Assembly: GCF_056712565.1 (NCBI RefSeq)
Contig: NZ_CM160072.1
Length of the DNA: 64,000 nucleotides
Reading direction: 5' to 3' (one strand)
Both the position numbers and the translations under genes were made by a program. Below, in pieces: positions 3,653 through 26,992 of this stretch. The notes under the pieces are model-generated. The model had not been told where the DNA came from, searched no databases, and saw nothing but the letters and a program-made list of their open reading frames with translations. Positions within the stretch are counted from its first letter, which is position 1; the number at the start of each line of letters is the position of its first letter.

Positions 3653-4906
3653 TTACTGCCCAGCAATAACGATGCCCGTATATTCAGGAACCAGTACAGA
3701 GCAACCGTACAGAGTGGTGAAACGCGCAGTGGTTACGCCTTTGATGTGGTCGAAGGAGTAAGACATGATCAGCGTAGCGCCCTGCTCGGTGGTTGCTGTC
3801 ATTACCTGTGGACCCTGACCAGTTGGGAACGCCAGTTTGCCGTACATCAGTTCAACAGAACCATCAGCCCAGAACAGGTTAGCAGGTGCTGCGTTCTTGT
3901 TGAGAATGGTGATTGCTGCTGATTCTGCCGGTTTGGCATCGACGTTTGCATATGGACGACTCGCAACATCAGTATTTTCAACAGGGAGAATCTTTGGAGA
4001 AATTGTTACGGTAGTTCCGCTAACAGCCAGAACACGGAATACCTGCGGTTGACCGGTGGTATCTTTTGTGATCTGGTGTACGGAATTCACACCGGCAATG
4101 GTGAACGCATCACCAACCTGCAAGCCAGATGCAGATACCGTAATAGTCCCCTGTCGGTTATCAACTGGCATACCATTTGAATCTTTCGCTTCAACCTTGT
4201 GTTCAGGTTGGCCTGATACTGTCAAGGATTCAGTGCTTCCTTTCGGTAATCGACCAGAAATATCGGTCTTGTAGCTATCAAAGGAAGCAACCGGAGGGAT
4301 CTGCGCTTTTTCGTATGCTGTCAGGGTTGCGCCCTGAGCGTAGGCTCGGTGACCAAGCTCGCCAGCAAGGTCTTTGTAGTTGAAGGGGTTCCAAAAAGAG
4401 CGGCGGTTGATACCCTGTGGCACACCAATCGCCGTCATGGTGGCATCAATACCTGCCGCACAGTTCCACAAATCACGGCCCTGTGAACCAGTGGTTGAGT
4501 CAGCCATTGTGATCACGTTAGTAGCACGCTGCGTGACCATGGAAATCAGGTCAGAGTCAATCTGTGCAGCAAGGCGCATACCTGCGGCGCGACCAGCTTC
4601 AGTTTTATGCTCAGGGTCACGCATTTCACGCGCATCCAGAGTGTACAGAATGTTTTTCGGCTCCTTGAACACTGAAGGAACAAGGCGCTGAACCAGTGCT
4701 GTTGGCGTTTTGCTGCTGAGGTCGAGGCCTTCCTCAATGTTCATGTGGTAATGCTGCGGACGATACAGAACATCACCTGCTCGCTGCATTGCTGTATCAC
4801 CGGGACGGAATTTTTTAGCGTTACGGGAAACTACGCAGGCGGCCTCAAAGCCTTCAACGTAGTTTTCGAACATGATTTCAAGGTCTTTTGCTAATTGGTT
4901 ATCCAT
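3653..4906 (-). CDS. Major capsid (coat) protein, P22-like phage family, non-P22 sequence type (417 aa)
   Basis: ORF track. Sits after the scaffold gene, with size and composition typical of P22-group coat proteins carrying an insertion domain. Confidence 0.85.
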   Translation of the reverse strand: MDNQLAKDLEIMFENYVEGFEAACVVSRNAKKFRPGDTAMQRAGDVLYRPQHYHMNIEEGLDLSSKTPTALVQRLVPSVFKEPKNILYTLDAREMRDPEHKTEAGRAAGMRLAAQIDSDLISMVTQRATNVITMADSTTGSQGRDLWNCAAGIDATMTAIGVPQGINRRSFWNPFNYKDLAGELGHRAYAQGATLTAYEKAQIPPVASFDSYKTDISGRLPKGSTESLTVSGQPEHKVEAKDSNGMPVDNRQGTITVSASGLQVGDAFTIAGVNSVHQITKDTTGQPQVFRVLAVSGTTVTISPKILPVENTDVASRPYANVDAKPAESAAITILNKNAAPANLFWADGSVELMYGKLAFPTGQGPQVMTATTEQGATLIMSYSFDHIKGVTTARFTTLYGCSVLVPEYTGIVIAGQ

Positions 4907-9524: not shown

Positions 9525-9961
9525 TTTCCGAATAGAGTACTCATCGGTGATGTTTCAATCTGGATTGCGCCGCCGTCTTTGCCTGTTAGCTCGTGATCAA
9601 CCTTGTCGCGCCATTTATCCTTCTGTCGGTTCTTAAGCCAGAAGATGGCAGCTGTTGTATCAGGCGGGTAATACTTCTCAAGAGGAGTTTCGACAATTCT
9701 GTTTTCAATAACACGAATATCGATGTCTGGAGCCACGAAGCCCATAGCGCGTTGATAAAGACGGTCACTAACTTCTGCATCAGCGACGGCCTTACCCTTT
9801 TTTATGGACTCCGAAAACTCAGGATAATCAAGCTTCCACTTGTTAATAGTTGACTCACTGACTTCGAAGAAATCAGCAAGCTCTGCATCGGTGTAGCCCA
9901 GCAAGCACAGTTTGCGTGCCTGTTCGGCATACGCCTCTTGATACTTTGTTGGGCGCGCCAT
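9521..9961 (-). CDS. Terminase small subunit (146 aa), Sf6 gp1-type C-terminus
   Basis: N-terminal HTH; the C-terminal ...TGKDGGAIQIETSPMSTLFGK is as in Sf6 gp1. ATGA overlap with TerL. Confidence 0.85.
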   Translation of the reverse strand: MARPTKYQEAYAEQARKLCLLGYTDAELADFFEVSESTINKWKLDYPEFSESIKKGKAVADAEVSDRLYQRAMGFVAPDIDIRVIENRIVETPLEKYYPPDTTAAIFWLKNRQKDKWRDKVDHELTGKDGGAIQIETSPMSTLFGK

Positions 9962-9963
9962 GT

Positions 9964-10206
9964 TTATGCTCCGGTGGTGAACAGGTCTAACGCTTCCTTC
10001 GATTTACGCACCGCTTCGATAGTGCGGGTCGTGATATCTGAATTAGCGCCGCCTGACTGGAAGTGAATTTTGAATAGCTCAAGCTTCAGTTCGTCAGTGC
10101 CAATGAACTGAAATGCTTCCTCTGCGGCTGCGTTCTGGTTCATGACCAGCTTGTAAATCTCTAACTGGAATTTCTGTTCTTCAGTCATGGGAATAATCTC
10201 TGCCAT
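9964..10206 (-). CDS. Hypothetical protein (80 aa), P22 orf80 position
   Basis: ORF track. Lies directly upstream of the small terminase, same length and slot as P22 orf80. Confidence 0.6.
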   Translation of the reverse strand: MAEIIPMTEEQKFQLEIYKLVMNQNAAAEEAFQFIGTDELKLELFKIHFQSGGANSDITTRTIEAVRKSKEALDLFTTGA

Positions 10207-10433
10207 TGTTGGCTCCGTTTATCCGTTAAAAGGGATATCAGTTAAGTTATCCCGTGTAGGGTATAAGCCATTGTCGAGACCACTCATTGAATGGTCTCTG
10301 CAATAACCGATGTCTTTCCATCAGTCCGCCACCACAAAGAATCTTTTTTGCCATAAGGCAGGAGGTTCATCTTTCAGTGGCTGCCAGTGTTATTTCCCCA
10401 CTTTCTGGCTTGGGTTGTTTCGCTGTACTGCCG

Positions 10434-10976
10434 TTAATTGGTGAGTCCGGGGATTACGGTTTGCCCGTGCTGTTCAAGGCGTTCAATTCTCGCCAGTAGC
10501 TGAGGCTTCTTAATTTTTCCCCAGCGATTAAGCAGGCGGCCTGACATGCTGGCAACATCCTTCTCTTTCATGTACTCCAGCATTACGGCATTTCTCTCTT
10601 CTTCAAATTGACGATGACCAACCTGAAGCATGGCGTACATCCAGTTGAATGCGTTGATGTAAGCAATTTTGATACGCATTGCTTCTTTTTTGGTGTAGGA
10701 CATAACCAAAAGCATCAACCCATCCTTGCGGAGACGGTAGAATTTTTGCGGCTTACCATTCTGTAACTCATTGTTTTTATAGCAAAGCTCAAAGTTGAGC
10801 TTTGTATCAAACTCAGGAGGGCAAGCTTCTATGGTTCGTTCAATGTCACGAACCACGTTCTTCGGCAGCTTTCCAAATGCTTTTGCCACCATAAAAGAAT
10901 CTGTAACCGGATCGTTGTTTGCTACAAAAATTAGGTCTCTGAAATCTATATCGTTAACAACGGTTGGGTAGTTCAT
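10434..10976 (-). CDS. rha: Rha-family phage regulatory protein (180 aa from MNYPTVVNDIDF...)
   Basis: The 203-aa track ORF contains an internal ATG at 10976. Rha-type N-terminal domain (..DSFMVAKAFGK..NVVRDIE); the slot between lysis genes and terminase is as in P22 orf201/rha. Confidence 0.7.
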   Translation of the reverse strand: MNYPTVVNDIDFRDLIFVANNDPVTDSFMVAKAFGKLPKNVVRDIERTIEACPPEFDTKLNFELCYKNNELQNGKPQKFYRLRKDGLMLLVMSYTKKEAMRIKIAYINAFNWMYAMLQVGHRQFEEERNAVMLEYMKEKDVASMSGRLLNRWGKIKKPQLLARIERLEQHGQTVIPGLTN

Positions 10977-11122
10977 TGCGTCTTTACCTTTTAGAAAGAT
11001 GAGCCTGTTCGCACAGAAAAGCCGCCCCGAGATGGTCGCCACCATATACGGCAGTTCTCAGGCTCAGCTTTCTGAAAGACTCGGGATTGTTACGCGCTGC
11101 GATGCGCGGTTTACTGCAGATA

Positions 11123-11147
11123 TAAAAAAGCCCCGCGAATGCGAGGC
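11123..11147 (-). terminator. Intrinsic terminator downstream of the lysis cassette
   Basis: Minus strand: GCCTCGC-ATTC-GCGGGGC (7 bp including one G-U pair) followed by TTTTTTATA. Confidence 0.6.
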
Positions 11148-11181
11148 TAAATCCTGGTATTTGTAATGACTGGCTCTTATC

Positions 11182-11325
11182 TCAACGCAGCCCCTTACCG
11201 CGCGCCAGATGCTCAATATCAAGCATCAGCAATGAGATGTTTAATCTGGATTCACTCCAGAAGTGATCACCACCCTGTCTACAGAGCCAGATGTGAAGGA
11301 TGATGAGTAAAATTATCGCTATCAT
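11182..11325 (-). CDS. Candidate 47-aa small membrane protein translationally coupled to Rz
   Basis: Own translation: [47 protein letters not shown]. The ATG overlaps the Rz stop (ATGA at 11325..11322). Below the ORF-track size cut-off. Confidence 0.35.
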
Positions 11326-11759
11326 CGAAGGCATTGCGTCCTGATGTACTCCTGCAGGTAGTTAACCTGCGCGGTTATCCTGTCGATTCCACTTCGGAGA
11401 CGGTAATAATTGAGTTCAGCATCTGCTGTAAGTCTTGGGTTTTCTCCATCGCCCATGCTGCTGGCTCCGGTCGTTGACTTTGCACAGGTGGCGGCGACTT
11501 GCAGGCGCTTACGCCCAGCAGAAACATCAGCACGGAGACTTTCGATAGTCGCGTTAGCATCAGCAAGCTCCTTTGTGTATCTTGCGTCGAGTTCTGCTAC
11601 ATCACGTTGACGCTTCCGCATATCAGCGATGATGGATGTGGCTTTATCGCGCTGCTCTTTGTAGGCGATTGCATTATCACGGTAATGATTAACAGCCCAT
11701 GACAGGCAGACGATGATGCAAATAATCAGAGCGGAGATAATCGCGGTGACTCTGCTCAT
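11322..11759 (-). CDS. Rz: i-spanin Rz (145 aa); first ~35 aa lambda-identical, remainder divergent
   Basis: [30 protein letters not shown] matches lambda Rz from memory. ATGA overlap with R. Confidence 0.9.
11375..11566 (-). CDS. Rz1: o-spanin Rz1 lipoprotein embedded in the +1 frame of Rz (63 aa)
   Basis: ORF track. Signal peptide with lipobox LLGVSAC and a Pro-rich mature part, fully nested in Rz as in lambda. Confidence 0.8.
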
Positions 11760-12232
11760 ACCTCAATCTCTCTGACCGTTCCGCCAGCCTCTTTGAATTT
11801 TGCAATCAGGTTGTCAGCCTTATGCTCGAACTGACCATAACCAGCGCCCGGCAGTGAAGCCCAGATATTGCTGCAACGGTCGATTGCCTGACGAATATCA
11901 CCGCGGTCAATCATCGGTAAAGCGCCACGCTCTTTAATCTGCTGCAATGCCACAGCGTCCTGACTTTTCGGAGAGAAGTCTTTCAGACCAAGCTGCTTAC
12001 GGTAGGCATCCCACCAACGGGAAAGAAGCTGGTAGCGTCCGGCGGCTGTTGATTTGAGTTTTGGGTTTAGCGTGACAAGCTTGCGAGGGTGATCGGAGTA
12101 ATCAGTAAATAGCTCTCCGCCTACAATGACGTCATAACCATGATTTCTGGTTTTCTGCCGTCCGTTATCAGTTCCCTCTGACCACGCCAGCATATCGAGG
12201 AACGCCTTACGTTGATTATTGATTTCCACCAT
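11756..12232 (-). CDS. R: Endolysin, lambda R-type lytic transglycosylase (158 aa)
   Basis: Near-identical to lambda R from memory ([42 protein letters not shown]...). Confidence 0.95.
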
Positions 12233-12539
12233 CTTCTACTCCGGCTTTTTTAGCAGCGAAGCGTTTGATAAGCGAACCAATCGAGTCAGTACCGATGTAG
12301 CCGATGAACACGCTCGTTATATAAGCGAGATTGCTACTTAGTCCGGCGAAGTCGAGAAGGTCACGAATGAACCAGGCGATAATGGCGCACATCGTTGCGT
12401 CGATTACTGTTTTTGTAAACGCACCGCCATTATATCTGCCGCGAAGGTACGCCATTGCAAACGCAAGGATTGCCCCGATGCCTTGTTCCTTTGCCGCGAG
12501 AATGGCGGCTAACAGGTCATGTTTTTCTGGCATCTTCAT
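12216..12539 (-). CDS. S: Holin/antiholin, lambda S-type with Met1-Lys2-Met3 dual start (107/105 aa)
   Basis: [44 protein letters not shown]... is essentially lambda S. The upstream leader is lambda-like. Confidence 0.95.
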
Positions 12540-13077
12540 GTCTTACCCCCAATAAGGGGATTTGCTCTATTTAATTAGGAATAAGGTCGATTACTGATAG
12601 AACAAATCCAGGCTACTGTGTTTAGTAATCAGATTTGTTCGTGACCGATATGCACGGGCAAAACGGCATGAGGTTGTTAGCGCAACCTCATGCCACCCGC
12701 TTTCACGAAGGTCATGTGTAGAAGGCCGCAGCATAACTATCACTGATGAATTCAGGATAGCCAGTGGCTACGGCTCAGGTTGGGTTGTGGCGGTCGGTGC
12801 TGAACTCCGACTTAATGACGATAGGCGTGTACCGACGCCTCGTTTTACTTCCTCCGCTTTCACGGCTTCACCCTAGACCAGCTTTACGAAATCCTCGTAA
12901 ACCTAACCGCGGCAGATATGACCGGCACGGTGTGCCATATCACGGACCGGCGGGTGTCTCGTTCACCTGATTAACGCATCAGCCTGCGTATTCACCACAA
13001 CGATAAGAGTACTGCGCGGCACCTTTCACCAATTCCGCGAGGTCTGCGGGTTCAATGCTCTTACCTGTTGTGCAAAC

Positions 13078-13119
13078 AAAAAAGCCACCGTTGCAACTTA
13101 AGAGTCACTAACGGCAGCT
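13078..13119 (-). terminator. tR'-like intrinsic terminator of the short late-promoter leader RNA
   Basis: Minus strand: AGCTGCCGTT...AACGGTGGCT stem (about 10 bp with two G-U pairs) followed by T6. The downstream sequence TGCACAACAGGTAAGAGCATTGA matches the lambda sequence that follows its tR'. Confidence 0.6.
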
Positions 13120-13128
13120 TACCTTCTA

Positions 13129-13158
13129 ATTATGGCTAAATGGATAATTGCATGTCAA
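13129..13158 (-). promoter_or_regulatory. Late promoter PR' candidate (TTGACA-N18-CATAAT) overlapping the Q stop codon
   Basis: Minus strand reads TTGACATGCAATTATCCATTTAGCCATAAT. It lies directly upstream of a strong terminator, the arrangement required for Q antitermination. Confidence 0.55.
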
Positions 13159-13654
13159 GGTTTTTAACAGCAACATGCTTAACTTTCTCAACACGTTTAC
13201 GCATTTTGAAAGCATTTTGCATTGGCTGGTATAAAACAAATAATGACGCTTTCAGGATGTCGTCAATTTCGTTTCTACAGGTTGCCAGTGAAGGTTTTCT
13301 CCATCCCTCGCCACCACGTCCACACATCTTGCGTGGCTTTGCAGTCGCGTGATAGTAGGATGCAATTGCTCGCTTAGATGAACCATGAGCGTAGTAGCTG
13401 AGGAGGATGCCAAAGGCTTTCTTGTCAATGTACATGACGGAATCAACGACCTGAGAAATCAACATTCCATCATCATCATTACACATTGGCCTTGTCATAA
13501 TTCTTCCCGGCTCTACGCTCTCCATGAACTTCGCTATTACGCTGCTCATGCGCTTTTCCAGACGACCTGAATAAACCCATGCGCCCCACAGTTCAAGCCA
13601 GCCATTCAGCCACTCGTGCTGCTCTTTGGTGAGGTTTAGTTCTCTTATGCTCAT
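13136..13654 (-). CDS. Q: Late-gene antiterminator Q, non-lambda type (172 aa)
   Basis: ORF track. Last gene of the nin region, directly before PR'/tR' and the lysis genes. Cys/His-containing region. Family assignment is by position and my recollection of Q21/Q82-type proteins. Confidence 0.7.
   Translation of the reverse strand: MSIRELNLTKEQHEWLNGWLELWGAWVYSGRLEKRMSSVIAKFMESVEPGRIMTRPMCNDDDGMLISQVVDSVMYIDKKAFGILLSYYAHGSSKRAIASYYHATAKPRKMCGRGGEGWRKPSLATCRNEIDDILKASLFVLYQPMQNAFKMRKRVEKVKHVAVKNLDMQLSI
13329..13361 (+). promoter_or_regulatory. Candidate CII-dependent antisense promoter (paQ-like) inside Q
   Basis: TTGCGTGGCTTTGC (TTGC-N6-TTGC), then 13 nt, then TAGGAT. The geometry is identical to PRE in this same prophage (20172-20204). 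Confidence 0.4.
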
Positions 13655-13839
13655 CGTCTTCCCCTCTTGCCTTGTTTGACCATCAGGACGCCGTTAACTA
13701 TTACGTGACGCTCGCCTTTGCTGTCTCGGTTGTACTTGAGCACTGTTCCTCTTGCGCAGGAAAGCATCCTCGCCACTTCGGTCTGATTGCCTCGTGTCTG
13801 GATAAGAAGCTCTGGTATCGTTTGAATTGTGGCGTTCAT
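13651..13839 (-). CDS. ninH: NinH (62 aa)
   Basis: TIPE.L....GNQTEVAR.L.C.RGTV.KY..D..G..H.IVN.VLMV matches lambda NinH from memory. Confidence 0.8.
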   Translation of the reverse strand: MNATIQTIPELLIQTRGNQTEVARMLSCARGTVLKYNRDSKGERHVIVNGVLMVKQGKRGRR

Positions 13840-14198
13840 GCGTTCTCCAGTTCGGTGATTTTTATTCCAAGCCGTCCGCCTGGTACTTTCACACCACGAA
13901 TTACGCGAATGTCATCGAATTGCTCGTCGTCTTCCGCAAATCCGGCGTGGATAAGGGAGTCGAGTAAACCTTTCAGGATGTTGTCGAGGTCGCGGCGGCG
14001 GGAGTCTGGAACGTCTGCGATGACTTTGATACGGAGTCGTGATTTGGTGAAAATGTCTAACTTGAGTTGGCGGATGATTTGCTGAACGTCTTTTCGGTAT
14101 TTCTGGCCTTTATCGCTTATGTAATATTGGCTTCCCCGTCTTCGCCAGTAGGTATTCACCGACGGCGGGTATGGAAGCACAAACTGATATTCGTTCAT
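13836..14198 (-). CDS. rusA: Holliday-junction resolvase RusA (120 aa)
   Basis: ORF track. The 120-aa length and the motif YPPSVNTYWR...RRRDLDN..K...D are typical of RusA. Confidence 0.85.
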   Translation of the reverse strand: MNEYQFVLPYPPSVNTYWRRRGSQYYISDKGQKYRKDVQQIIRQLKLDIFTKSRLRIKVIADVPDSRRRDLDNILKGLLDSLIHAGFAEDDEQFDDIRVIRGVKVPGGRLGIKITELENA

Positions 14199-14485
14199 GA
14201 CTTAATCTTCCCCTCCCTCAGCAGTATCGCCTGCGTTCTGATCACGCCTTCGAGGTGGTAAAGTCTGGCGTCTTTGTTGTCGAGATTATGGGTGCGTCGG
14301 TCGATTTCATCGTGACACGCACTACAAGCCCATGCACCGATCAGGTCGTCAGGCTTCATTCCCGTTCCGCAAATTCCAGCCATCCGGTAATGTGCCAGAA
14401 CTGTAGTTTCAGGGTTGCCATTGCATACGCCGTAAATACGTACCTGACATTCTCTTCCGCGCGCTTCTTTGCGTAGGTTAGCCAT
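14195..14485 (-). CDS. DUF1364 / YbcO-like protein (96 aa), Cys-rich putative nuclease
   Basis: Same length and Cys pattern (C..C...C..C) as DLP12 YbcO from memory; adjacent to rusA as in DLP12. Confidence 0.65.
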   Translation of the reverse strand: MANLRKEARGRECQVRIYGVCNGNPETTVLAHYRMAGICGTGMKPDDLIGAWACSACHDEIDRRTHNLDNKDARLYHLEGVIRTQAILLREGKIKS

Positions 14486-15207
14486 TAAGCAGCCTCCCCT
14501 GTTACTTTCAGCATTCCGTTATCGAGCAGCTTTCTGGTCAGCCACTGTTGACCACGCCCGGTGATTTTTGTGGTGAACGATATCTGTATTCCGTGATTTG
14601 TGTTGACCGCTGTTTCTTTCACTGTGAAATAGCCGCGATCCATATATTCCTGCATTGGCACATTGCGCCGGGAACCTGAAGCAATAAGGATTTTGTGATC
14701 ACGCATCCACGCAAACAGTTTGTTTTGACCAATACCAACAACCTTTGCAAAGTTTCCAATCAAAATTCCGCTGGCCTCGCCAACGCGATCGGCAAACTCA
14801 ACTTTAGGTGCGACAATTGCGAGCTGGTTTTCCAGTTGCATTTTCTGCTCAGCAAGATCGGCAGCAAGGCGCAACGCTTCCGGTAGCGTTTTGGGGATAT
14901 TAACCGCAGCTTCTTCAAGCTCTCGCCAGCGGTCAACAAGGCGAGCGGTGAACTCTGGCGACAACTGGGCAACAACGACAATACTGTCTCGCTTACCTTG
15001 TTCGCCCTCGAAGACGTAATGCTCGTACTGAACATTGAACCCTAAGTTATTGATTCTTTCGGAAACCTCAATTTGAGGAAGCCGGATAACACCATTTTTA
15101 GCCAGCGTTTCGATGGTACGTTTCACATTGTCATGACGCTTACCAACCAACTCAGCAATTTCAATGCTTGTCATTTTGATGGCATTGCCATTCATTAACT
15201 CATTCAT
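14485..15207 (-). CDS. Rha-N / KilA-C (antirepressor-type) DNA-binding protein, HK022 Roi-like (240 aa)
   Basis: The N-terminus ..MTSIEIAELVGKRHDNVKRTIE is the Rha/Bro-type HTH. The C-terminal half is KilAC-like (GNFAKVVGIGQNKLFAWMRDHKIL). The nin-region location is as for Roi. Confidence 0.65.
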   Translation of the reverse strand: MNELMNGNAIKMTSIEIAELVGKRHDNVKRTIETLAKNGVIRLPQIEVSERINNLGFNVQYEHYVFEGEQGKRDSIVVVAQLSPEFTARLVDRWRELEEAAVNIPKTLPEALRLAADLAEQKMQLENQLAIVAPKVEFADRVGEASGILIGNFAKVVGIGQNKLFAWMRDHKILIASGSRRNVPMQEYMDRGYFTVKETAVNTNHGIQISFTTKITGRGQQWLTRKLLDNGMLKVTGEAA

Positions 15208-15376
15208 CGTCTTCTTCCTCGTACATTGAGCTATTCGGATCGCTCATCAGTTCTGCGCAGCAATCGGAGCACACGTGAACTTCAAGCACATGCAGCTTCT
15301 GACCGCAGTTAGCGCACGTTAATGCCCGCTCGACGCTTTCTTTCTGGTATTGAAGGGATTGGGATGGGCTAAGCAT
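15200..15376 (-). CDS. ninF: NinF (58 aa)
   Basis: Own translation: MLSPSQSLQYQKESVERALTCANCGQKLHVLEVHVCSDCCAELMSDPNSSMYEEEDDE, near-identical to lambda NinF from memory. Below the ORF-track cut-off. Confidence 0.8.
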   Translation of the reverse strand: MLSPSQSLQYQKESVERALTCANCGQKLHVLEVHVCSDCCAELMSDPNSSMYEEEDDE

Positions 15377-15788
15377 TATTGGCGTCCTGCATCATGAGAA
15401 ATACAATCATGGCGGCGCGGAGTGGAGATTCACCGCAGAAGTAGTAGCCAGGAATATTTTCCCATTCCCAACAACCTTCCTCTAAATCACCTCCTGACCA
15501 TGCGCACCATTCTTTTTCCGCTGTCATCCACATAGTGCTGATTTTGCTTTCAGTGATAATTGGCCACGCGTATTCAGGATTATTGCAAGGATTGAAGCAA
15601 TTTCCGTTTGAAGAACGGAAGCCATTAATATCCCTTTTTTGCGTCTGCCAAATAGGACCTCTTTCGTCAGTGGGGATCTCAGAATCGAAGTCTGCTTCGT
15701 CATCAGGTATGAAGAAATGCTCCTCCATATCTAAAGCCTCACATACTCGTCTGTTAATTTCAAAATCACTTAACTGTGAATAATCCAT
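15369..15788 (-). CDS. ninX: NinX / DUF2591-like protein (139 aa from MDYSQLSDFEINRRV...)
   Basis: ORF track, using an internal ATG with GAGG at correct spacing. Position between ninD and ninF is as in P22. Confidence 0.65.
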   Translation of the reverse strand: MDYSQLSDFEINRRVCEALDMEEHFFIPDDEADFDSEIPTDERGPIWQTQKRDINGFRSSNGNCFNPCNNPEYAWPIITESKISTMWMTAEKEWCAWSGGDLEEGCWEWENIPGYYFCGESPLRAAMIVFLMMQDANNA

Positions 15789-15790
15789 TG

Positions 15791-15967
15791 TCATTTCCTC
15801 GCACGATGTCTTAGCAACCGGATATCCCACAGGTGAGCCGTGTAGTTGAAGGTTTTTACGTCAGATTCTTTTGGGATTGGCTTGCGTTTATTTCTGGTGC
15901 GTTTCGTTGGAAGGTATTTGCAGTTTTCGCAGATGATGTCGGTGATACTTCGTCGCTGTCGCCTCAT
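15791..15967 (-). CDS. ninD: NinD (58 aa)
   Basis: [56 protein letters not shown] is recognised. ATGA overlap with ninB. Confidence 0.8.
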
Positions 15968-20568: not shown

Positions 20569-21219
20569 ATGAAAACTCAATTGATGGGAGAGCGCATTCG
20601 CGCTCGGAGAAAAGAACTCAAGATCAGGCAGGCCGCACTTGGAAAGATGGTCGGCGTGTCTAATGTTGCCATATCTCAGTGGGAACGCTCTGAGACAGAG
20701 CCAAATGGAGAGAATCTTCTCGCCCTGGCTAATGCGTTGAAGTGTTCCCCTGACTATCTGATGAAAGGAGAGGAAAGTCTTTCAAACATTGCCTATCACA
20801 GTAGGCATGATCCAAGAGGGTCATACCCTCTGATTAGCTGGGTGAGCGCAGGATGCTGGATGGAAGCTGTAGAACCATATCATAAGCGTGCAATAGATAA
20901 CTGGTACGATACAACCGTAGACTGTTCAGAAGATTCGTTTTGGTTGGACGTGAAGGGAGACTCAATGACGGCTCCGGCCGGTCTCAGTATCCCTGAAGGA
21001 ATGATAATACTCGTCGATCCTGAAGTAGAGCCGCGTAACGGGAAACTGGTAGTTGCAAAGCTCGAAGGAGAAAACGAGGCAACTTTCAAGAAGTTAGTTA
21101 TTGATGCAGGCAGGAAGTTTCTAAAACCACTTAACCCACAATATCCGATGATCGAGATCAACGGAAACTGCAAAATCATCGGCGTAGTTGTCGATGCAAA
21201 ACTAGCAAACCTTCCATAA
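20569..21219 (+). CDS. c2: Prophage repressor C2, P22-type (216 aa; HTH plus S24 autopeptidase domain)
   Basis: Same length as P22 C2 and near-identical from memory (..QLMGERIRARRK.LKIRQAALGKMVGVSNVAISQWERSETEPNGENLLAL...VVDAKLANLP). Confidence 0.95.
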   Translation: MKTQLMGERIRARRKELKIRQAALGKMVGVSNVAISQWERSETEPNGENLLALANALKCSPDYLMKGEESLSNIAYHSRHDPRGSYPLISWVSAGCWMEAVEPYHKRAIDNWYDTTVDCSEDSFWLDVKGDSMTAPAGLSIPEGMIILVDPEVEPRNGKLVVAKLEGENEATFKKLVIDAGRKFLKPLNPQYPMIEINGNCKIIGVVVDAKLANLP

Positions 21220-21220
21220 G

Positions 21221-21243
21221 GGGGCATTCGCCCCTTTTTTTTT
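21221..21243 (+). terminator. Intrinsic terminator after c2
   Basis: GGGGC-ATTC-GCCCC followed by T9. Confidence 0.85.
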
Positions 21244-21286
21244 ATTTCCTTTAAAAATCAAAGCCAAACTTAAGTTACGAAAGAAA

Positions 21287-21340
21287 ATTTAAGTTTTCTT
21301 CAAAAATGCTCTTGACCATTAATTAAAGAGATCTTAAATT
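21287..21340 (+). promoter_or_regulatory. Left operators and PL promoter
   Basis: P22-type operators at 21322-21339 (ATTAAAGAGATCTTAAAT) and 21287-21304. PL is TTGACC(21312-21317)-N17-TAAATT(21335-21340). Confidence 0.7.
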
Positions 21341-21386
21341 TAAGCCATCAGCAGGACGCTGGAAGCCAAACGGAACAGATTGGCAG

Positions 21387-21427
21387 GCTCTTTAACATTG
21401 ATGGGATTGTCCCGCCGAAATGCGGGA
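21387..21427 (+). promoter_or_regulatory. nutL (boxA GCTCTTTAACA plus boxB TCCCGCCGAAATGCGGGA)
   Basis: Lies about 40 nt downstream of the predicted PL start. BoxB is identical to the nutR boxB. Confidence 0.8.
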
Positions 21428-21740
21428 ACCAAAGAGTAGTTGGCTTTGGGGTGACGTGAAGTGCAGCTGCACGACGGCAACCGGAAGATAAGCACCCGGC
21501 GCGTCACCGCCAAAGTCAATTCCATAGGCGTTATGCAGCCGCCACCATATTCAAGAAAGCTGCACAAGAGGTAGGAGGATTTATGTGAATGCATAACTTC
21601 AAAACCGAGGTTAATTAAATCTCTCGATCCGAGCATCGACCTATTAGGTGGCGAGATGCTCTTTCTGCCCCTCAGTTCGAGGGGCCAGAAACCACTTTGC
21701 AATCACTATCAATTCCAAAGTTGTTTCATCGGAGGTCAAC

Positions 21741-22040
21741 ATGACAGTAGTCATTACATATCTGGCTGACGATAACGCCAGAAATCGCCGCAGAGCACGC
21801 AGACAGGCTCAACGTGAACAGGCGATGCAAGAACAGCGACTGGCGCGAAAAATTGCGCTAAAGCTCTCTGGTTGCGTCAGAGCGGATAAAGCAGCATCAC
21901 TCGGAATCCTTCGCTGCAAGAAGGCAGATGAAGTCGAGAGTAAACAGAATCGTATTTACTACCGCAAGCCACGCAGTGAAATGGGTGTGACTTGTGTTGG
22001 TCGCCAGAAAATGAAATTAGGCAGCAAACCACTTATTTGA
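21741..22040 (+). CDS. N-like transcription antiterminator (gp24 analogue, 99 aa) with an arginine-rich motif
   Basis: ATG 21741 is preceded by GGAGG. N-terminal ARM DDNARNRRRARRQAQREQ. First gene of the PL operon downstream of nutL. An upstream in-frame GTG start (21648) is less likely. Confidence 0.75.
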   Translation: MTVVITYLADDNARNRRRARRQAQREQAMQEQRLARKIALKLSGCVRADKAASLGILRCKKADEVESKQNRIYYRKPRSEMGVTCVGRQKMKLGSKPLI

Positions 22041-22048
22041 GGTGATAT

Positions 22049-22519
22049 ATGACAAAATCATGGAGCGTACCTTTTCCTGAATCAGAAACTGAACATGATG
22101 GAATGCCTGTTTTCTGGAGATTCCAAGCGACAGTTGAAGAAGATGGAATCAAAATATTCGCACTTCAATATATAGCTTTTCATCAGACAGAGCATTATGC
22201 ATGGTTGGTTCCTGCGCATTGGATTGTTAATTTTAAACCAGCACCAAATCAGTGGTTACAGGAATGGAAACAAAGGAGAAATAGATATGCAATTAAGAAA
22301 GTAGCAAAAAATGCAGAAAGATCTTTTGCATTCCCGACGAAGAAACTTGCCATTGAAAGTTTATTGCGCCGGAAGAAATACCATTTGATGAGAATCAAAC
22401 AAGATTTGGCTGTTGTATCAACTCTTGTTGATGGGATGAAGAATATTGATACATCAACACCAGGTATTGAATATAACTTTGGACACAACCAAGAAACAGA
22501 AAACTGGGTGTTTTATTAG
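22049..22519 (+). CDS. Orphan protein (156 aa), low GC, unknown function
   Basis: ORF track. GAGGTGA SD. No TM segment. Trp-rich N-terminal half and a strongly basic helical centre. I do not recognise the family. Confidence 0.7.
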   Translation: MTKSWSVPFPESETEHDGMPVFWRFQATVEEDGIKIFALQYIAFHQTEHYAWLVPAHWIVNFKPAPNQWLQEWKQRRNRYAIKKVAKNAERSFAFPTKKLAIESLLRRKKYHLMRIKQDLAVVSTLVDGMKNIDTSTPGIEYNFGHNQETENWVFY

Positions 22520-22623
22520 TACGAATAAGCACTGTGTATTCATTCCAACGAGTGAATACACGGAGCAATGTCGCTCGTAACTAAACAGGAGCCGACTTGT
22601 TCTGATTATTGGAAATCTTCTTT

Positions 22624-22647
22624 GCCCTCCAGTGTGAGGGCTTTTTT
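22624..22647 (+). terminator. tL1-like intrinsic terminator
   Basis: GCCCTC-CAGTGT-GAGGGC followed by T6. Confidence 0.75.
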
Positions 22648-22713
22648 ATATGCATACCAATAACGCTTCACTCGAGGCGTTTTCGTTATGCAATCAAACA
22701 GAAGGAGCATCCT

Positions 22714-22884
22714 ATGCAACAGTTCGCTATTGCAGGGGCGGCATCGGTTCGCCCTTTCAACCCGATTTTATCGGTACAGCATTCACGAAAAAACATTTTA
22801 ACCGGAGCAGACTTTAAACAACCAAGAATGAAAAGCTTGCTCGAAAAGCTTTGGGATATTTTGAAACAACAAGGCCGTCCATGA
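22714..22884 (+). CDS. cIII: CIII-like FtsH inhibitor (56 aa)
   Basis: Own translation from ATG 22714 (GAAGGAG SD): MQQFAIAGAASVRPFNPILSVQHSRKNILTGADFKQPRMKSLLEKLWDILKQQGRP. The MQ.AIAG start and amphipathic SLLE.L...L.Q.G core resemble lambda/HK022 CIII. Confidence 0.6.
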   Translation: MQQFAIAGAASVRPFNPILSVQHSRKNILTGADFKQPRMKSLLEKLWDILKQQGRP

Positions 22885-23039
22885 GTTTTACGGATAACTG
22901 GTCAGACGAAGAATTCATTCGTCAGATAAAAGAATTAATCGGTAACGAAGGAGATATTCATGTCACTTGCAACCACAGTGAAGGAGAGCAAGTTACAGAG
23001 ACGCATGTACACGCAGAAAGCTCTCTGGTATCGCCATAA
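22881..23039 (+). CDS. Candidate small acidic protein (52 aa)
   Basis: The ATG overlaps the cIII stop (ATGA). Overlaps the next candidate ORF by 80 nt, so at most moderately supported. Confidence 0.35.
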   Translation: MSFTDNWSDEEFIRQIKELIGNEGDIHVTCNHSEGEQVTETHVHAESSLVSP

Positions 23040-23130
23040 TGGTGACCGCGAAGGAATGCGGGTATGCCTTAATTTGTCCCGAGTCGAAGTATTAAATCAG
23101 CGTTATTTCCTTGGGCCGTGTCCATTCTGA
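22960..23130 (+). CDS. Candidate small basic protein (56 aa), kil/arf slot upstream of erf
   Basis: Own translation: MSLATTVKESKLQRRMYTQKALWYRHNGDREGMRVCLNLSRVEVLNQRYFLGPCPF. Strong GAAGGAG SD 7 nt upstream. Below the ORF-track cut-off. Confidence 0.5.
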   Translation: MSLATTVKESKLQRRMYTQKALWYRHNGDREGMRVCLNLSRVEVLNQRYFLGPCPF

Positions 23131-23140
23131 GAGCAATCAT

Positions 23141-23746
23141 ATGAGCAAAGAATTTTACGCAAGACTGGCAGCTATTCAGGAGAATCTGAACGCGCCAAAG
23201 AATCAGTACAACTCATTCGGCAAATATAAATACAGAAGCTGCGAAGATATTCTTGAAGGCGTTAAGCCGTTACTGAACGGTCTGTTTTTATCAATCAGCG
23301 ATGAAGTTGTGTTGATTGGTGATCGGTATTACGTGAAAGCCACGGCAACTATTACCGATGGCGAAAACAGTCATACGGCAACCGCTCTTGCACGAGAGGA
23401 AGAAAGCAAGAAAGGAATGGATTCTGCACAAGTTACGGGAGCTACAAGCTCTTATGCACGCAAGTATTGCCTCAATGGTTTGTTCGGCATTGATGATGCG
23501 AAAGATGCAGATACAGACGAGCATAAACATCAGCAGAACGCAGCAGCAAAGCAATCAAAACCATCACTTACACCTGAACAGGTTCTAAAAGCATTCACTG
23601 ACGCAGCAATGCAGAAAAACACCGTAGAAGAGCTTAAACAGGCGTTCGCCAAAGCGTGGAAGATGCTCGAAGGGACGCCGGAGCAGCACAAAGCGCAGGA
23701 CGTTTACAACATCAGACGAGACGAATTAGAAGGGGCAACTGCTTAA
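23141..23746 (+). CDS. erf: Erf single-strand annealing recombinase, P22 Erf-like (201 aa)
   Basis: The N-terminal ~130 aa, MSKEFYARLA.IQE.LNAPKNQYNSFGKYKYRSCEDILEGVKPLL.GLFLSISDE.VLIGDRYYVKATATITDGENSH, are recognised as P22 Erf. The C-terminal domain diverges. Confidence 0.9.
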   Translation: MSKEFYARLAAIQENLNAPKNQYNSFGKYKYRSCEDILEGVKPLLNGLFLSISDEVVLIGDRYYVKATATITDGENSHTATALAREEESKKGMDSAQVTGATSSYARKYCLNGLFGIDDAKDADTDEHKHQQNAAAKQSKPSLTPEQVLKAFTDAAMQKNTVEELKQAFAKAWKMLEGTPEQHKAQDVYNIRRDELEGATA

Positions 23747-24129
23747 TGGCACATTCGATTACAGTAAGACTAAACAAACCCGCAAGAGAGTTTCAGGGCG
23801 GGGAAAATATCGGATTCAACATCCGTGCTGGCGTTCAGTATTACGATCGCCAGACAAAAAAGAAAGAATGGACAAACTACAGCGCCGTTGTATTTGCCAA
23901 GCCGGGAGCGCAAGCGGATTACTATCGTAGCGTTCTGGTTGAAGGAGGCATTGTAGAAATTACCGGAGAAAACATCAGGGTTGATGTTTATCAGGGGCAA
24001 AATGGTCAATCAATCACTCTTGAATTACTGAATGCAAAGATTGGATTTGCAACTTCAGGAAACAGCCAACAGCAGCAAAGTAGCAATCATCAAAATAATC
24101 CTGAATACGACGATTCCATCCCATTCTGA
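23746..24129 (+). CDS. ssb: Short phage SSB-like OB-fold protein (127 aa) with a host-SSB-type acidic tip ...EYDDSIPF
   Basis: Internal ATG overlaps the erf stop (TAATG). Gln-rich linker plus a DDSIPF tail (compare E. coli SSB DDDIPF). Confidence 0.7.
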   Translation: MAHSITVRLNKPAREFQGGENIGFNIRAGVQYYDRQTKKKEWTNYSAVVFAKPGAQADYYRSVLVEGGIVEITGENIRVDVYQGQNGQSITLELLNAKIGFATSGNSQQQQSSNHQNNPEYDDSIPF

Positions 24130-24152
24130 TTTAGAAAAATAAGGATTTAATT

Positions 24153-24449
24153 ATGCCAGCGCCTTTGTATGGTGCGGATGACCCGCGCCGCTGTTCCGGC
24201 AATTCCGTATCGGAGGTGCTGGATAAATTCAGAAAAAACTACGATCGAATAATGTCTCTACCGCAGGAAACGAAAGAGGAAAAGGAATTTCGCCACTGTA
24301 TATGGCTTGCAGAGAAAGAAGAACGCGAGCGAATTTACCAGACATCAATCCGACCATTCCGCAAAGCCACATATACCCACTTCCCTGAATATATCGACCC
24401 GCGCCTGCGTAATTACCGCTCACGCTATGGCGCTATCAGTAATGACTGA
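24153..24449 (+). CDS. Hypothetical protein (98 aa)
   Basis: ORF track; AAGGA SD; ea-region location. Confidence 0.55.
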   Translation: MPAPLYGADDPRRCSGNSVSEVLDKFRKNYDRIMSLPQETKEEKEFRHCIWLAEKEERERIYQTSIRPFRKATYTHFPEYIDPRLRNYRSRYGAISND

Positions 24450-24525
24450 GGAATTTACCATGAGAGGACTTGCTTAAGAGAAAGAGTTTCGGTTCTGTTA
24501 ATGACAACAAATATCTGAATGCGAT

Positions 24526-25062
24526 GTGGCGGAGTGGGAAGAAATGAAACAAATGTCACTAATTGAGATGGATGGTTTTCTGAAAGGTAAATGCATCCCA
24601 AGTGATTTAAAGGTTAACGAAACAAACGCTGAATACCTTGTCCGTAAGTTCGGTGAACTTGAATCAAAACTGGAAACGGCGTTGCGGGAGTGTAGTTCTG
24701 CTGGAATCACGATTGATAACCTTGAGGCTAAATGCGCGAAGATGGCTGCTGAAAATACCTCACTTAAGCAATCTGAGAAGGAATTTAATGACTTTTGTCG
24801 TGAGGAGTTTAGCGAATGGGAAGATGATGTTACTGAAACCCCAGCCACCGATGCTTTTCTGGCTGAAGTGCGGGCGCAGGGGGTGGATGCTGCTATAGAA
24901 GCTGCAAAAAATCTGGTGGCCCAAGAATATGAGTATAAGGATTTCAAAGCGGCGCAGAGTGATTGCTGTATGCACCCTGGTTCAGACCTGGTAGGGAAGG
25001 TTGAAATGACTGAGTGGTTAGTTGACTTTGCTGCCCAGCTTCGCAAAGGAGGCAACCAGTGA
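24526..25062 (+). CDS. Ead/Ea22-like coiled-coil protein (178 aa; start uncertain, GTG 24526 or ATG 24544)
   Basis: ORF track. The TPATDAFLAEVRAQGVDAAIE motif and coiled-coil N-terminal half are typical of Ea22-like proteins of lambdoid prophages. Confidence 0.6.
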   Translation: MAEWEEMKQMSLIEMDGFLKGKCIPSDLKVNETNAEYLVRKFGELESKLETALRECSSAGITIDNLEAKCAKMAAENTSLKQSEKEFNDFCREEFSEWEDDVTETPATDAFLAEVRAQGVDAAIEAAKNLVAQEYEYKDFKAAQSDCCMHPGSDLVGKVEMTEWLVDFAAQLRKGGNQ

Positions 25063-25358
25063 CTGTATGTCTTATTGATAAACGTCGACGTGGGCAACAA
25101 ATACCATCTGTTGAAATGCCGAATCACACATGGTTTTGCGTACTTGATATCGATGGTATGGATACGTTGGTTGACACTCGTCATTACTGCGATACCGCAA
25201 CAGCTACTCCGGCGAAAGCAAAGAAAATGGCTGCTCTGATAGAAAACTGGACTCCACCTGATGGTTGGTGCAATGGGAATGATCGAGATTGGCACGAAAA
25301 AATGAAGGGCTATATCTGCGATTTTTTACGTAAATGCAACGGCTTCAGGGGGATGTGA
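25059..25358 (+). CDS. Hypothetical Cys/Trp-rich protein (99 aa)
   Basis: ORF track. GTGA overlap with the upstream gene. Confidence 0.5.
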   Translation: MTVCLIDKRRRGQQIPSVEMPNHTWFCVLDIDGMDTLVDTRHYCDTATATPAKAKKMAALIENWTPPDGWCNGNDRDWHEKMKGYICDFLRKCNGFRGM

Positions 25359-25359
25359 T

Positions 25360-25932
25360 ATGACCAAAATTAACTATCAGGCACTGCGTGAGGCGGCAGA
25401 ACGTGCAATTCCGGCAATGGAACGCCTGTTAATGTTGCCAGTTGATGATGATTTGTTAAGTGAACAGGAACTTAAGGATTACGGTGTGGATATTGATGCG
25501 CTCAACGCCTTCAAATTTCTGACCGGACCAGAAACCGTGCTGGCGCTGCTGGATGAACGGGAAAGAAACCAGCAATACATCAAACGCCGCGACCAGGAGA
25601 ACGAGGAAATTGCGCTAACGGTAGGGAAGCTGCGCGTTGAGCTGGAAGCTGCAGAGAAGCGCATTGCAGAACTGGAAGCCGAACCTGTAAGCCAAACTTA
25701 CAAGTTGAACGAGCTGTCGGGCAACTATCCGGTAACTCCGGATGGTTGGATAAGCTGTAGTGAGCGAATGCCCGCTCAAGATGATTGGATTTTAATTTAT
25801 TCAAAGCACGGCGAGTATATGGCAGGACAGGTACAAGGGGAATACGTGGAGTTGAGCGACGGCACTTTATCGTGGTTAGGGAACGCCTTGTACTGGATGC
25901 CTCTACCGGAACCGCCGCAGGAGGTTAATTGA
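25360..25932 (+). CDS. Ea22-like N-terminus / DUF551 C-terminal domain protein (190 aa)
   Basis: ORF track. The C-terminal W.S..ERMP....W.L.......G...........WMPLPEPP pattern is typical of DUF551. Confidence 0.65.
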   Translation: MTKINYQALREAAERAIPAMERLLMLPVDDDLLSEQELKDYGVDIDALNAFKFLTGPETVLALLDERERNQQYIKRRDQENEEIALTVGKLRVELEAAEKRIAELEAEPVSQTYKLNELSGNYPVTPDGWISCSERMPAQDDWILIYSKHGEYMAGQVQGEYVELSDGTLSWLGNALYWMPLPEPPQEVN

Positions 25933-26126
25933 TGGTCTCCTTCGCGAAATATACGATTATTGACTGGATAGCATTCATTCAGGTTTTGCTCATCTGGTTT
26001 TATATGGCTTACAGGAGTGGACAGTGGATTGTCAGTGTAGCCTGTAGCAATGGATGGCGTTGGTGGAACCGAAAGAATAAAAAAAGCGCTGGCCTTGGCT
26101 TCGTTTTACGAAGCATTCAATCTTAA
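25932..26126 (+). CDS. Small membrane protein (64 aa)
   Basis: ATG 25932 overlaps the upstream stop (TGATG). AGGAGG SD 8 nt upstream. Hydrophobic N-terminal half. Confidence 0.5.
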   Translation: MVSFAKYTIIDWIAFIQVLLIWFYMAYRSGQWIVSVACSNGWRWWNRKNKKSAGLGFVLRSIQS

Positions 26127-26209
26127 CAGTCTTCAGCCTGGTTCTGTCGTTGTAGTCACCACTCAAAGCGGCATGACGATACAAATTCACAAGCCAAAGG
26201 AGGAAGGTC

Positions 26210-26494
26210 GTGGCTAACCTGCAACTTGCCGTTAAAGGTGAATACTTCGATGCCATGATTCGCGGAGAGAAAACGGAAGAGTATCGCCTGTGTAATGACT
26301 ACTGGAATAAGCGAATTATGTTCCGCGAGTATGACCGCCTGATTATCACAAAGGGATATCCGAAGCGCGACGATTCCAGCCGCAGAATTGACGTCCCGTA
26401 TGACGGATATGAAATCAAGACAATCACACATCCGCACTTCGGCGATAAACCGGTAAAGGTGTTCGCTATAAAGGTGAATATCGACAATGAATGA
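26210..26494 (+). CDS. ASCH (PUA-like) domain protein (94 aa)
   Basis: ORF track. GTG start with AAGGAGGAAGG SD. ..VKGEYFDAMIRGEKTEEYR... is typical of ASCH-domain proteins. Confidence 0.6.
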   Translation: MANLQLAVKGEYFDAMIRGEKTEEYRLCNDYWNKRIMFREYDRLIITKGYPKRDDSSRRIDVPYDGYEIKTITHPHFGDKPVKVFAIKVNIDNE

Positions 26495-26566
26495 TAATCC
26501 TCGCACTCGCGGGGATTTCTTTTATCTGAACTCGCTACGGCGGGTTTTGTTTTATGGAGATGATAA

Positions 26567-26734
26567 ATGCACTTCCGAGTCACAGGTGAATGGAATGGAG
26601 AGCCATTCAACAGAGTTATCGAAGCAGAGAACATCAACGACTGCTATGACCACTGGATGCTGTGGGCGCAGATAGCACATGCAGACGTAACTAATATTCG
26701 AATTGAAGAACTGAAAGAACACCAAGCCGCCTGA
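26567..26734 (+). CDS. Small hypothetical protein (55 aa), K-12 ypdJ-region homologue
   Basis: Own translation: MHFRVTGEWNGEPFNRVIEAENINDCYDHWMLWAQIAHADVTNIRIEELKEHQAA. The stop codon sits in the loop of the following terminator. Confidence 0.5.
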   Translation: MHFRVTGEWNGEPFNRVIEAENINDCYDHWMLWAQIAHADVTNIRIEELKEHQAA

Positions 26735-26746
26735 TGGCGGTTTTTT
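26725..26746 (+). terminator. Intrinsic terminator ending the PL operon before torI
   Basis: CCGCC-TGAT-GGCGG followed by T6. Confidence 0.7.
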
Positions 26747-26756
26747 ATTGCCTGAT

Positions 26757-26772
26757 TTGCAGGTTCGATTCC
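26757..26772 (+). other. tRNA-Arg (argW) T-arm-like fragment TTGCAGGTTCGATTCC
   Basis: 16/16 match to my recollection of argW (..AATTGCAGGTTCGATTCCTGCAGGGGACACCA). The T-stem 3' strand is missing, so this is not a tRNA gene. Confidence 0.5.
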
Positions 26773-26791
26773 CTATTCGGAGATAGCACTC

Positions 26792-26992
26792 ATGCAACAC
26801 GAACTACAACCTGATTCACTGGTTGATTTGAAATTCATCATGGCCGATACTGGCTTCGGTAAAACCTTCATCTATGACCGGATTAAGTCCGGCGACCTGC
26901 CAAAAGCCAAAGTTATCCACGGGCGAGCAAGATGGTTATATCGTGACCATTGTGAATTCAAAAATAAGCTCTTAAGCCGCGCCAATGGGTAA
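26792..26992 (+). CDS. torI: Excisionase / TorR inhibitor TorI (66 aa)
   Basis: MQHELQPDSLVDLKFIMADTGFGKTFIYDRIKSGDLPKAKVIHGRARWLYRDHCEFKNKLLSRANG is recognised as K-12 KplE1 TorI. Last phage gene before attR. Confidence 0.85.
   Translation: MQHELQPDSLVDLKFIMADTGFGKTFIYDRIKSGDLPKAKVIHGRARWLYRDHCEFKNKLLSRANG

Follow-up and report, generated by a model that had tools for sequence, protein, structure and literature searches.

Palindromes inside the rha and roi genes of a CUS-3-like prophage are candidate operators for the genes' own products

Introduction

The rha gene of phage P22 and the roi gene of phage HK022 have a long-standing link to integration host factor (IHF). The product of P22 rha reportedly blocks growth on IHF-deficient hosts (a finding ascribed to Henthorn & Friedman 1995), and HK022 Roi is said, after Clerget & Boccard (J Bacteriol 1996; a paper cited in PMC3430580), to bind within its own gene beside an IHF site, with IHF stabilising the binding. 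Mutations in rha and roi are said in these two original papers, of 1995 and 1996, to restore phage growth on IHF-deficient hosts. Here we analyse the rha and roi genes of one prophage, carried on a 64,000-nucleotide stretch of DNA (contig NZ_CM160072.1 of RefSeq assembly GCF_056712565.1; hereafter the window). In both genes, the codons shortly after those of the predicted recognition helix form a palindrome. Among relatives of the two genes, these palindromes stand at a fixed place, are constrained as nucleic acid and covary with specific residues of the helix. We consider it probable that Rha and Roi each bind this intragenic operator and so control themselves, with the help of IHF.

Sites within the coding sequence of the protein that reads them are known elsewhere, as for the E. 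coli PurR operators within purR and B. subtilis parS within spo0J. These cases serve as an analogy only. Compared with them, the site in rha and roi lies 7–20 codons from the recognition helix, its position is conserved across two protein families, and it changes together with the helix as an exchangeable cassette.

Palindromes and IHF sites inside rha and roi

By sequence, the two open reading frames (ORFs) are rha and roi of a CUS-3-like, P22-family prophage, CUS-3 being a P22-like Lederbergvirus of E. coli K1 strain RS218 (CP000711). The pair has already been named and annotated, and finding it is in itself ordinary.

10434..10976, minus strand: rha gene, 180 aa, between Rz and orf80/DUF2560 plus the gene for the small terminase subunit
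14485..15207, minus strand: roi gene, 240 aa, orthologous to HK022 roi; its translation is coupled to that of ninF upstream and of a ybcO-like gene downstream

A first-pass annotation, made from the letters of the window, had placed both ORFs at these coordinates, one between the lysis and packaging genes and the other in the nin region, and we find them there, on the minus strand. It had also pointed to P22 rha and HK022 roi as relatives; the likeness is stronger than it claimed, as the two genes are true orthologues of these, in the same genomic slots. The elements on which our analysis centres are listed below.

15066..15078, minus strand: palindrome CCTCAAATTGAGG inside roi, the proposed Roi operator, formed by codons P44-Q-I-E47 and the next G
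10783..10804, minus strand: perfect 10+10 palindrome CAAAGCTCAA-CT-TTGAGCTTTG inside rha, the proposed Rha operator, in codons T58–C65 ('KLNFELC')
15043..15055, minus strand: exact IHF consensus AATCAATAACTTA in roi (roi nt 153–165), 17 nt past the palindrome centre
10764..10776, minus strand: IHF-like core AAACAATGAGTTA in rha, with one mismatch to WATCAANNNNTTR, 17 nt past the palindrome centre
15097..15135, minus strand: predicted recognition helix of Roi, H25-D-N-V-K-R-T-I-E-T-L-A-K37 (DSSP helix 25–37 in a low-confidence AlphaFold2 (AF2) model)
10830..10865, minus strand: predicted recognition helix of Rha, P38-K-N-V-V-R-D-I-E-R-T-I49 (from alignment with Rha relatives; K39/N40 correspond to Roi positions 26/27)
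15018..15146, minus strand: hypervariable cassette of roi (nt ~62–190, aa 22–62), containing the recognition helix, the palindrome and the IHF site

The shared core of the two palindromes, CTCAA-N0-4-TTGAG, occurs at just two sites in the 64-kb window, one in roi and one in rha. The IHF consensus WATCAANNNNTTR has a single perfect match in the window, against 3.4 expected by chance, and that match falls within roi, on the codons that carry it in HK022 roi as well; the suggestion of the first-pass annotation that a host nucleoid protein might be involved is borne out to that extent. Further copies of the operators with up to one mismatch were absent from the window and from the CUS-3 sequence examined, and matches with two mismatches were at chance level. 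A scan for sigma-70 promoters gave no excess over shuffled sequence and placed no site at the proposed operators.

We compared the window genes with their two described counterparts. P22 rha has the corresponding place in the late operon (Rz – rha – orf80/DUF2560 – small terminase; its neighbours in P22 are gene 15/Rz and orf80/gene 3), and its product has the same architecture, a Rha domain followed by ORF11CD3. The same is true of its leader, which has a terminator, a long hairpin and an upstream start codon, and of the intragenic palindrome with an IHF core at +17. The two Rha proteins are 53% identical over their full length and ~98% identical over the last 60 aa, the ORF11CD3 end, so that what differs is the N-terminal DNA-binding half, with helix H-A-D-V in P22 and P-K-N-V in the window. 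The predicted operators differ in keeping with this: that of P22 rha, GCGCATTTTTGCG, is imperfect, whereas the core in the window rha, GCTCAACTTTGAGC, is perfect. Conversely, the IHF core is exact in P22 rha and has one mismatch in the window rha.

HK022 roi lies in the same gene order (ninF – roi – ybcO-like – rusA – ninH – Q), and its product is 87% identical to the window Roi overall and ~99% identical in the KilAC half. It has the exact IHF consensus at the same codons (roi nt 153–165), with a palindrome centred 17 nt upstream, as in the window roi. The difference is concentrated in the cassette, aa 22–62, which has been exchanged, while the flanking DNA is ~98% identical. Within the cassette, the recognition helix is DNVKRTIETL in the window Roi and SNVKVSIDRL in HK022 Roi, and the palindrome is CCTCAAATTGAGG in the window and CCTGCATTGCAG in HK022, at the same codons. 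In both Rha and Roi it is the DNA-binding module that varies, and the effector module that is kept constant. The roi gene is also found in HK97, HK620, mEpX2 and phages encoding Shiga toxin (Stx).

Two further observations concern the same sites. P22 rha (record nt 4825–4851) and the window roi (15040–15066, minus strand) share a block of 27 nt, GTTTCCGAAARAATCAATAACTTAGGG, with 26/27 positions identical; it spans the IHF core, all its synonymous positions agree, and P22 rha carries the identical IHF 13-mer. Outside this block the two genes can barely be aligned (40% identity over 43 aa). In roi of the Stx2a phage Stx2_13518 (301–1020) the palindrome is down to 4/6 pairs and the IHF core has one mismatch; judged from this allele, the two elements seem to decay together.

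Covariation of helix and palindrome among relatives

A Roi set was assembled from 80 Roi-like loci in the genome collection, each from a different species, together with phage alleles; it comprised 82 distinct genes from many proteobacterial genera. At the homologous codons of these genes, the 13-nt palindrome is paired at 6/6 positions in 46 and at 5/6 in 28, as compared with 0.27% and 3.3%, respectively, of control windows elsewhere in the same genes. Pairing reaches 84.9% of cells in the 21-nt alignment of the site; shuffles give 61.6±1.3 (0/500 reach the observed value) and slid controls 33–47%. The covariation score is 0.548, against 0.152, and 10/10 pairs vary on both sides. Indeed, the two half-sites change jointly, giving CCTCAA/TTGAGG, CCCCCA/TGGGGG, CCACCA/TGGTGG, CCGCCA/TGGCGG, CCTCCA/TGGAGG, CCTGCA/TGCAGG and GCGCCA/TGGCGC. 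Of the 29 Roi genes that encode P-P-x-X at this place, 27 have a first Pro codon whose silent last base is complementary to the middle base of the fourth codon (C/G in 10, A/T in 7, T/A in 6 and G/C in 4). Selection at the protein level is incapable of producing covariation of a silent base, and the constraint therefore acts on the nucleic acid.

The bases of the half-site follow particular residues of the helix. In the Roi set, N27 goes with T·A in 40/40 genes, K27 with C·G in 10/11 and S27 with A·T in 8/9; T34 goes with A·T in 17/17, and V or I at position 30 with G·C in 9/10. After correction by shuffling, the share of entropy explained is 0.91 for base 3 by residue 27, 0.93 for base 4 by residue 30 and 0.93 for base 5 by residue 34. 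Residues 37–43, which are nearer to the palindrome in sequence, explain at most 0.31 of base entropy. The three positions combine freely (N-R-T, N-R-R, N-V-R, S-R-R, S-R-T, K-Q-R and D-R-R are all found), each combination with its predicted half-site; together with the weak signal of residues 37–43, this disfavours simple linked inheritance. Residues spaced 3–4 apart that match three successive bases are what would be expected of a recognition helix lying in the major groove. The pairings also fit general preferences of amino acids for bases, in which Asn goes with A·T, Lys or Arg with G, and Asp with C.

A second set, of 58 distinct Rha-type genes, included phage records, among them one Bacillus phage and one Paenibacillus phage. 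At the conserved 'L-N-F-E' codons of these genes, a perfect 6+6 palindrome with a 2-nt centre is present in 51/58, as compared with 0.03% elsewhere in the genes; when 10-nt arms are considered, at least 8/10 positions are paired in 33, against 0.01% elsewhere. Again the half-site follows the helix. H-K-N-V goes with GCTCAA in 19/19 genes and H-K-D-V with GCGCAA (19), while H-D-N-V goes with CCTCAA or ACTCAA in 7/8 (the eighth has CCTAAA) and H-G-D-V with ACGCAA (7). For the second variable residue of the helix this rule agrees with that of the Roi family, N going with T and D with G. For the first variable residue, K goes with G and D with C in both families, but G goes with A in Rha and with G in Roi.

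The palindromes might, alternatively, act in the mRNA as hairpins that affect translation, stability or ribosome pausing, the match to the helix being a matter of genetic linkage only. The Rha-family palindromes, with arms of 10–11 nt round a 2-nt centre, would indeed form stable hairpins, and the rha leader described below shows that this gene uses RNA structure. The Roi-type site, however, has 6-nt arms round a single central base and would make a poor RNA hairpin. Linkage, in turn, does not account well for the finding that bases 3, 4 and 5 are each explained by one residue at the helical spacing of 3–4, whereas residues nearer in sequence explain little, or for a residue-to-base rule that is largely unchanged across two families with different centre spacings. 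We regard a role as mRNA hairpins as very improbable.

In the enterobacterial alleles the distance to the IHF site is also fixed. Exact IHF cores stand at +17 from the palindrome centre in 9/9 cases in the Roi family and 2/2 in the Rha family, where ~0.0002 per gene would be expected; P22 rha and L260 are among the genes with an exact core at this offset.

Proposed self-control by Rha and Roi

The mechanism that we favour, in which Rha and Roi control themselves through operators in their own genes, would work as follows. Both are two-domain proteins, with an N-terminal Rha-type helix-turn-helix part that varies between alleles and a C-terminal effector that stays constant, ORF11CD3 in Rha and KilAC in Roi. 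Each Rha domain would bind, as a dimer, the palindrome 7–20 codons downstream of the codons for its own recognition helix, and successive turns of that helix (Roi residues 27, 30 and 34) would read the bases of each half-site in succession. Helix and operator would be exchanged together as one cassette, in roi with the IHF site included, and exchange as such a unit would explain the boundaries of the variable cassette of roi. The complex of protein and IHF on the gene would limit expression of that same gene. Without IHF, self-control would fail, and an excess of the effector domain would harm phage growth. Self-limitation that depends on IHF would match the phenotypes that rha and roi reportedly show on IHF-deficient hosts, and palindromes beside an IHF site may thus explain why both genes have been linked to IHF for so long. 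Two further elements, a terminator upstream and a leader hairpin over the ribosome-binding site, would also keep rha expression low.

Several points weigh against this mechanism. The argument for operator recognition is one from covariation, and the sampled Roi and Rha genes share descent, so that the counts given above exceed the number of independent events. The long palindromes of the Rha family (arms up to 10–11 nt) could, as mentioned, form stable mRNA hairpins. In the window rha, the IHF-like site is mismatched at a core T. Most relatives outside the enterobacteria are without an IHF core; IHF is therefore not essential across the family and would rather be an add-on. The AF2 model of Roi was built on 33 close homologues (at least 83% identical) and reached a mean predicted local distance difference test (pLDDT) score of 37.7, which makes it of no use beyond secondary structure. 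Because the model is poor, the assignment of the Roi helix rests on secondary structure and knowledge of the family. Finally, autoregulation is one among several possible consequences of binding within the gene.

One such consequence would be that the complex of protein and IHF in roi serves mainly as a roadblock or timer for transcription into Q, and that in rha for transcription into the packaging genes, rather than as an autoregulator. The positions of the genes would suit such a role, since Q follows roi in the same operon and the terminase genes lie downstream of rha. Loss of IHF, though, reportedly inhibits growth and mutations in roi or rha restore it, which would fit an excess of free protein better than a missing roadblock. 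On the side of a roadblock, antisense transcripts that start at Q and reach up to roi have been described for phage Gally in macrophages (PMC9928086). Taking these together, we think it quite unlikely that a roadblock is the main role of the complex.

Our literature search did not find a description of Rha or Roi operators, most subscription journals lying outside its coverage; the intragenic-operator model of rha and roi is apparently undescribed. The chances seem to us about even that the same applies to Rha-domain regulators in general, that is, that they have their cognate operator in their own coding sequence, follow the residue-to-base rule 27 to 3, 30 to 4 and 34 to 5, keep helix and operator in a recombination-proof cassette and, in enterobacterial phages, have an IHF site 17 nt away. 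Were this so, the single observation made on HK022 Roi in 1996 would be generalised to the Rha-KilAC and Rha-ORF11CD3 families, the dependence of rha and roi on IHF would be explained, and operators could be predicted from protein sequence. An operator placed beside the codons of the helix that reads it would keep specificity and target together in mosaic phages despite constant recombination.

As first put forward, the pair of Rha-domain genes would have added nothing, as the genes are named, annotated and found unchanged in many E. coli genomes. From the present analysis, each of the two 'regulators of unknown mechanism' gains a candidate operator, IHF as its predicted partner and a proposed rule for its specificity. 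Phages and prophages encode very many Rha-domain proteins, which are usually labelled 'antirepressor' or 'transcriptional regulator' without evidence; a rule that predicts their targets would correct such labels.

Protein domains and alternative roles

The domains of the two proteins are as follows; residue numbers of Rha refer here to the longer, 203-aa ORF discussed in the next section.

10638..10904, minus strand: Rha (winged-helix type) DNA-binding domain of Rha, PF09669, residues 48–136 of the 203-aa ORF
10449..10604, minus strand: ORF11CD3 C-terminal domain of Rha, PF10549, residues 148–199 of the 203-aa ORF, 91.1 bits (cut-off 25), E 5.2e-26
14911..15174, minus strand: Rha-type DNA-binding domain of Roi, PF09669, residues 12–99, 36.7 bits
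14524..14832, minus strand: KilAC/ANT C-terminal domain of Roi, PF03374, residues 126–228, 113.5 bits (cut-off 25.3), E 7.9e-33

Rha matches Pfam Phage_pRha (PF09669) with 76.6 bits (E 2.4e-21, cut-off 29.9) and NCBIfam TIGR02681 with 84.4 bits (cut-off 45.95). Roi matches Phage_pRha with 36.7 bits (E 6.2e-9), above the same Pfam cut-off of 29.9, and reaches 18 bits with TIGR02681, below the cut-off of 45.95; passing the one and failing the other makes it a divergent member of the Rha family. The first-pass annotation had called both N-termini Rha/Bro-type, of which the Rha part stands, Phage_pRha being found in both, and the Bro-N part does not. The KilAC-like C-terminal half that it gave to the second ORF is upheld by the strong PF03374 match, and Pfam finds no KilAC domain in Rha. 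It had mentioned neither the ORF11CD3 domain nor the palindromes within the genes nor the structure of the rha leader. Rha and Roi have no similarity to each other detectable by BLASTP, and a sequence search of PDB returned no solved relative of either. A few Roi entries in the databases are longer (294–304 aa) and have an additional Pfam domain, either N-terminal PF25212 or PF05772 together with KilAC; these resemble gene calls that read through into, or are fused with, adjacent nin genes.

KilAC (PF03374) occurs in annotated antirepressors, and PHROG 63 and 130 are labelled 'anti-repressor Ant'. One or both proteins might accordingly be antirepressors that inactivate the CI-type repressors of co-resident prophages, the cross-talk foreseen by the first-pass annotation, with their DNA binding incidental. 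Trans-acting antirepressors that coordinate Salmonella prophages are on record, going by the passage of PMC13043305 that cites Lemire 2011. CUS-3, however, already has a classical immI module with Ant and Mnt (CP000711 5572–7534: ant with P22_AR_N and P22_AR_C, plus two mnt genes), and its Ant belongs to a different protein family. The window starts at CUS-3 nt 12745, and this module therefore falls outside it. The presence of a separate, P22-type Ant makes antirepressor cross-talk by Rha or Roi less necessary. Moreover, the prophage repressor is a LexA-family protein, of the self-cleaving type, so that induction by the SOS response can be explained without an antirepressor. The strong residue-to-base covariation, in addition, shows that the Rha domains have been selected to read DNA. 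No specific support for cross-talk through repressor inactivation emerged from our analysis, and we consider it unlikely that Rha or Roi is an antirepressor of this kind.

The C-terminal half of Roi also recalls AriS of a Listeria phage, which we grouped with other KilAC proteins, P1 Ant1 and KilA, for comparison. AriS has an AntA/AntB N-terminus, unlike the pRha N-terminus of the window Roi, and no intragenic operator has been described for it. By analogy, Roi could be a dual regulator whose Rha domain controls phage genes while KilAC dampens the host SOS response, probably via RecA. In Listeria, KilAC proteins with an AntA/B or Bro-N N-terminus, namely AriS and two homologues, inhibit SOS through KilAC, and the combination of pRha and KilAC, which Roi matches by Pfam, is given as a natural variant of this architecture (PMC9043618). 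The evidence, though, comes from Firmicutes only, and roi, as part of the nin operon, is expressed after induction, when damping of SOS has less obvious value. Such a second function for Roi, which would be compatible with self-control through the intragenic operator, appears to us a reasonable lead, if a doubtful one.

The rha leader

The open frame of rha extends upstream to an ATG at 11045, giving the 203-aa form annotated in CUS-3. We rejected this form. In most related leaders the extension is out of frame or stopped, a 1-nt indel bringing the upstream frame to a stop ahead of the rha ATG, and PHROG 518 begins at the short start. As the 23-codon extension is not conserved in frame and PHROG 518 begins there, the start at 10976 is preferred. 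Two elements lie between Rz and this start.

11129..11148, minus strand: intrinsic terminator (hairpin and T-run) between Rz and rha; P22-type leaders retain it, with compensatory changes
10988..11078, minus strand: extended RNA hairpin of the rha leader, about 95 nt, with the 3' arm base-paired to the ribosome-binding region of rha and the conserved upstream start (ATG 11045 / GTG 11042) within it

An upstream ATG or GTG is found 63–70 nt before the rha ATG in all 20/20 distinct leaders from related prophages and P22. The frame that it opens ends at –10 or –15 in most of them and at +1, as an ATGA overlap, in three P22-like leaders; among the 20, it runs into rha only in the window/CUS-3 type and in P22. 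This pattern suggests that the upstream start serves coupling through an upstream ORF rather than a longer protein.

Leaders were folded one by one because RNAalifold, run on a MAFFT alignment, misaligned the outer stem between two leader types. Nine rha leader variants, including that of P22, gave the same fold when folded separately in this way, although P22 and the window are only ~68% identical over the aligned intergenic region and rha start. The inner stem of the hairpin has four compensatory pairs. Against Rfam, the window had no match that reached the gathering score, and 9900–15900 yielded only matches at chance level; the hairpin is therefore not a described RNA family. We infer that the leader would place a tight post-transcriptional limit on rha, which translation of the upstream frame might lift.

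Prophage context

The neighbours of the two genes by Pfam are Rz, DUF2560 and terminase on the rha side and NinX, NinF, YbcO, RusA, NinH and Q on the roi side. The stop of ninF overlaps the start of roi by 8 nt (15200–15207) and the stop of roi overlaps the start of the ybcO-like gene by 1 nt (14485), just as the first-pass annotation had described. RefSeq names the product of 10434–10976 a Rha family transcriptional regulator and that of 14485–15207 a phage antirepressor KilAC domain-containing protein, while the annotation of CUS-3 calls the latter gene roi.

The segment 10200–15400 is 99.8% identical to CUS-3 and is present with 100% identity in E. coli ATCC 11775 and many chromosomes of extraintestinal pathogenic (ExPEC) and avian pathogenic (APEC) E. 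coli. At least 80% of the 5.2-kb rha–roi segment is present in 108 complete E. coli genomes, and the two genes are counted among the five regulators of the published phage Gally (PMC9928086); the pairing of the two genes is for these reasons not rare.

A 50-aa ORF on the minus strand (11182–11334) overlaps the end of Rz; RefSeq lists it as hypothetical protein WP_001139680.1, and it is without a Pfam match. ARAGORN found no tRNA genes in the 64-kb window. In the early-left region of the ATCC 11775 prophage (window ~21000–31500) a DUF4752 gene and a hypothetical gene near ninB are frameshifted, and an ead/Ea22-like gene and a DUF2737 gene are partial. With several early-left genes broken, the prophage may not be fully intact. 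Its end adjoins torI/dsdC.

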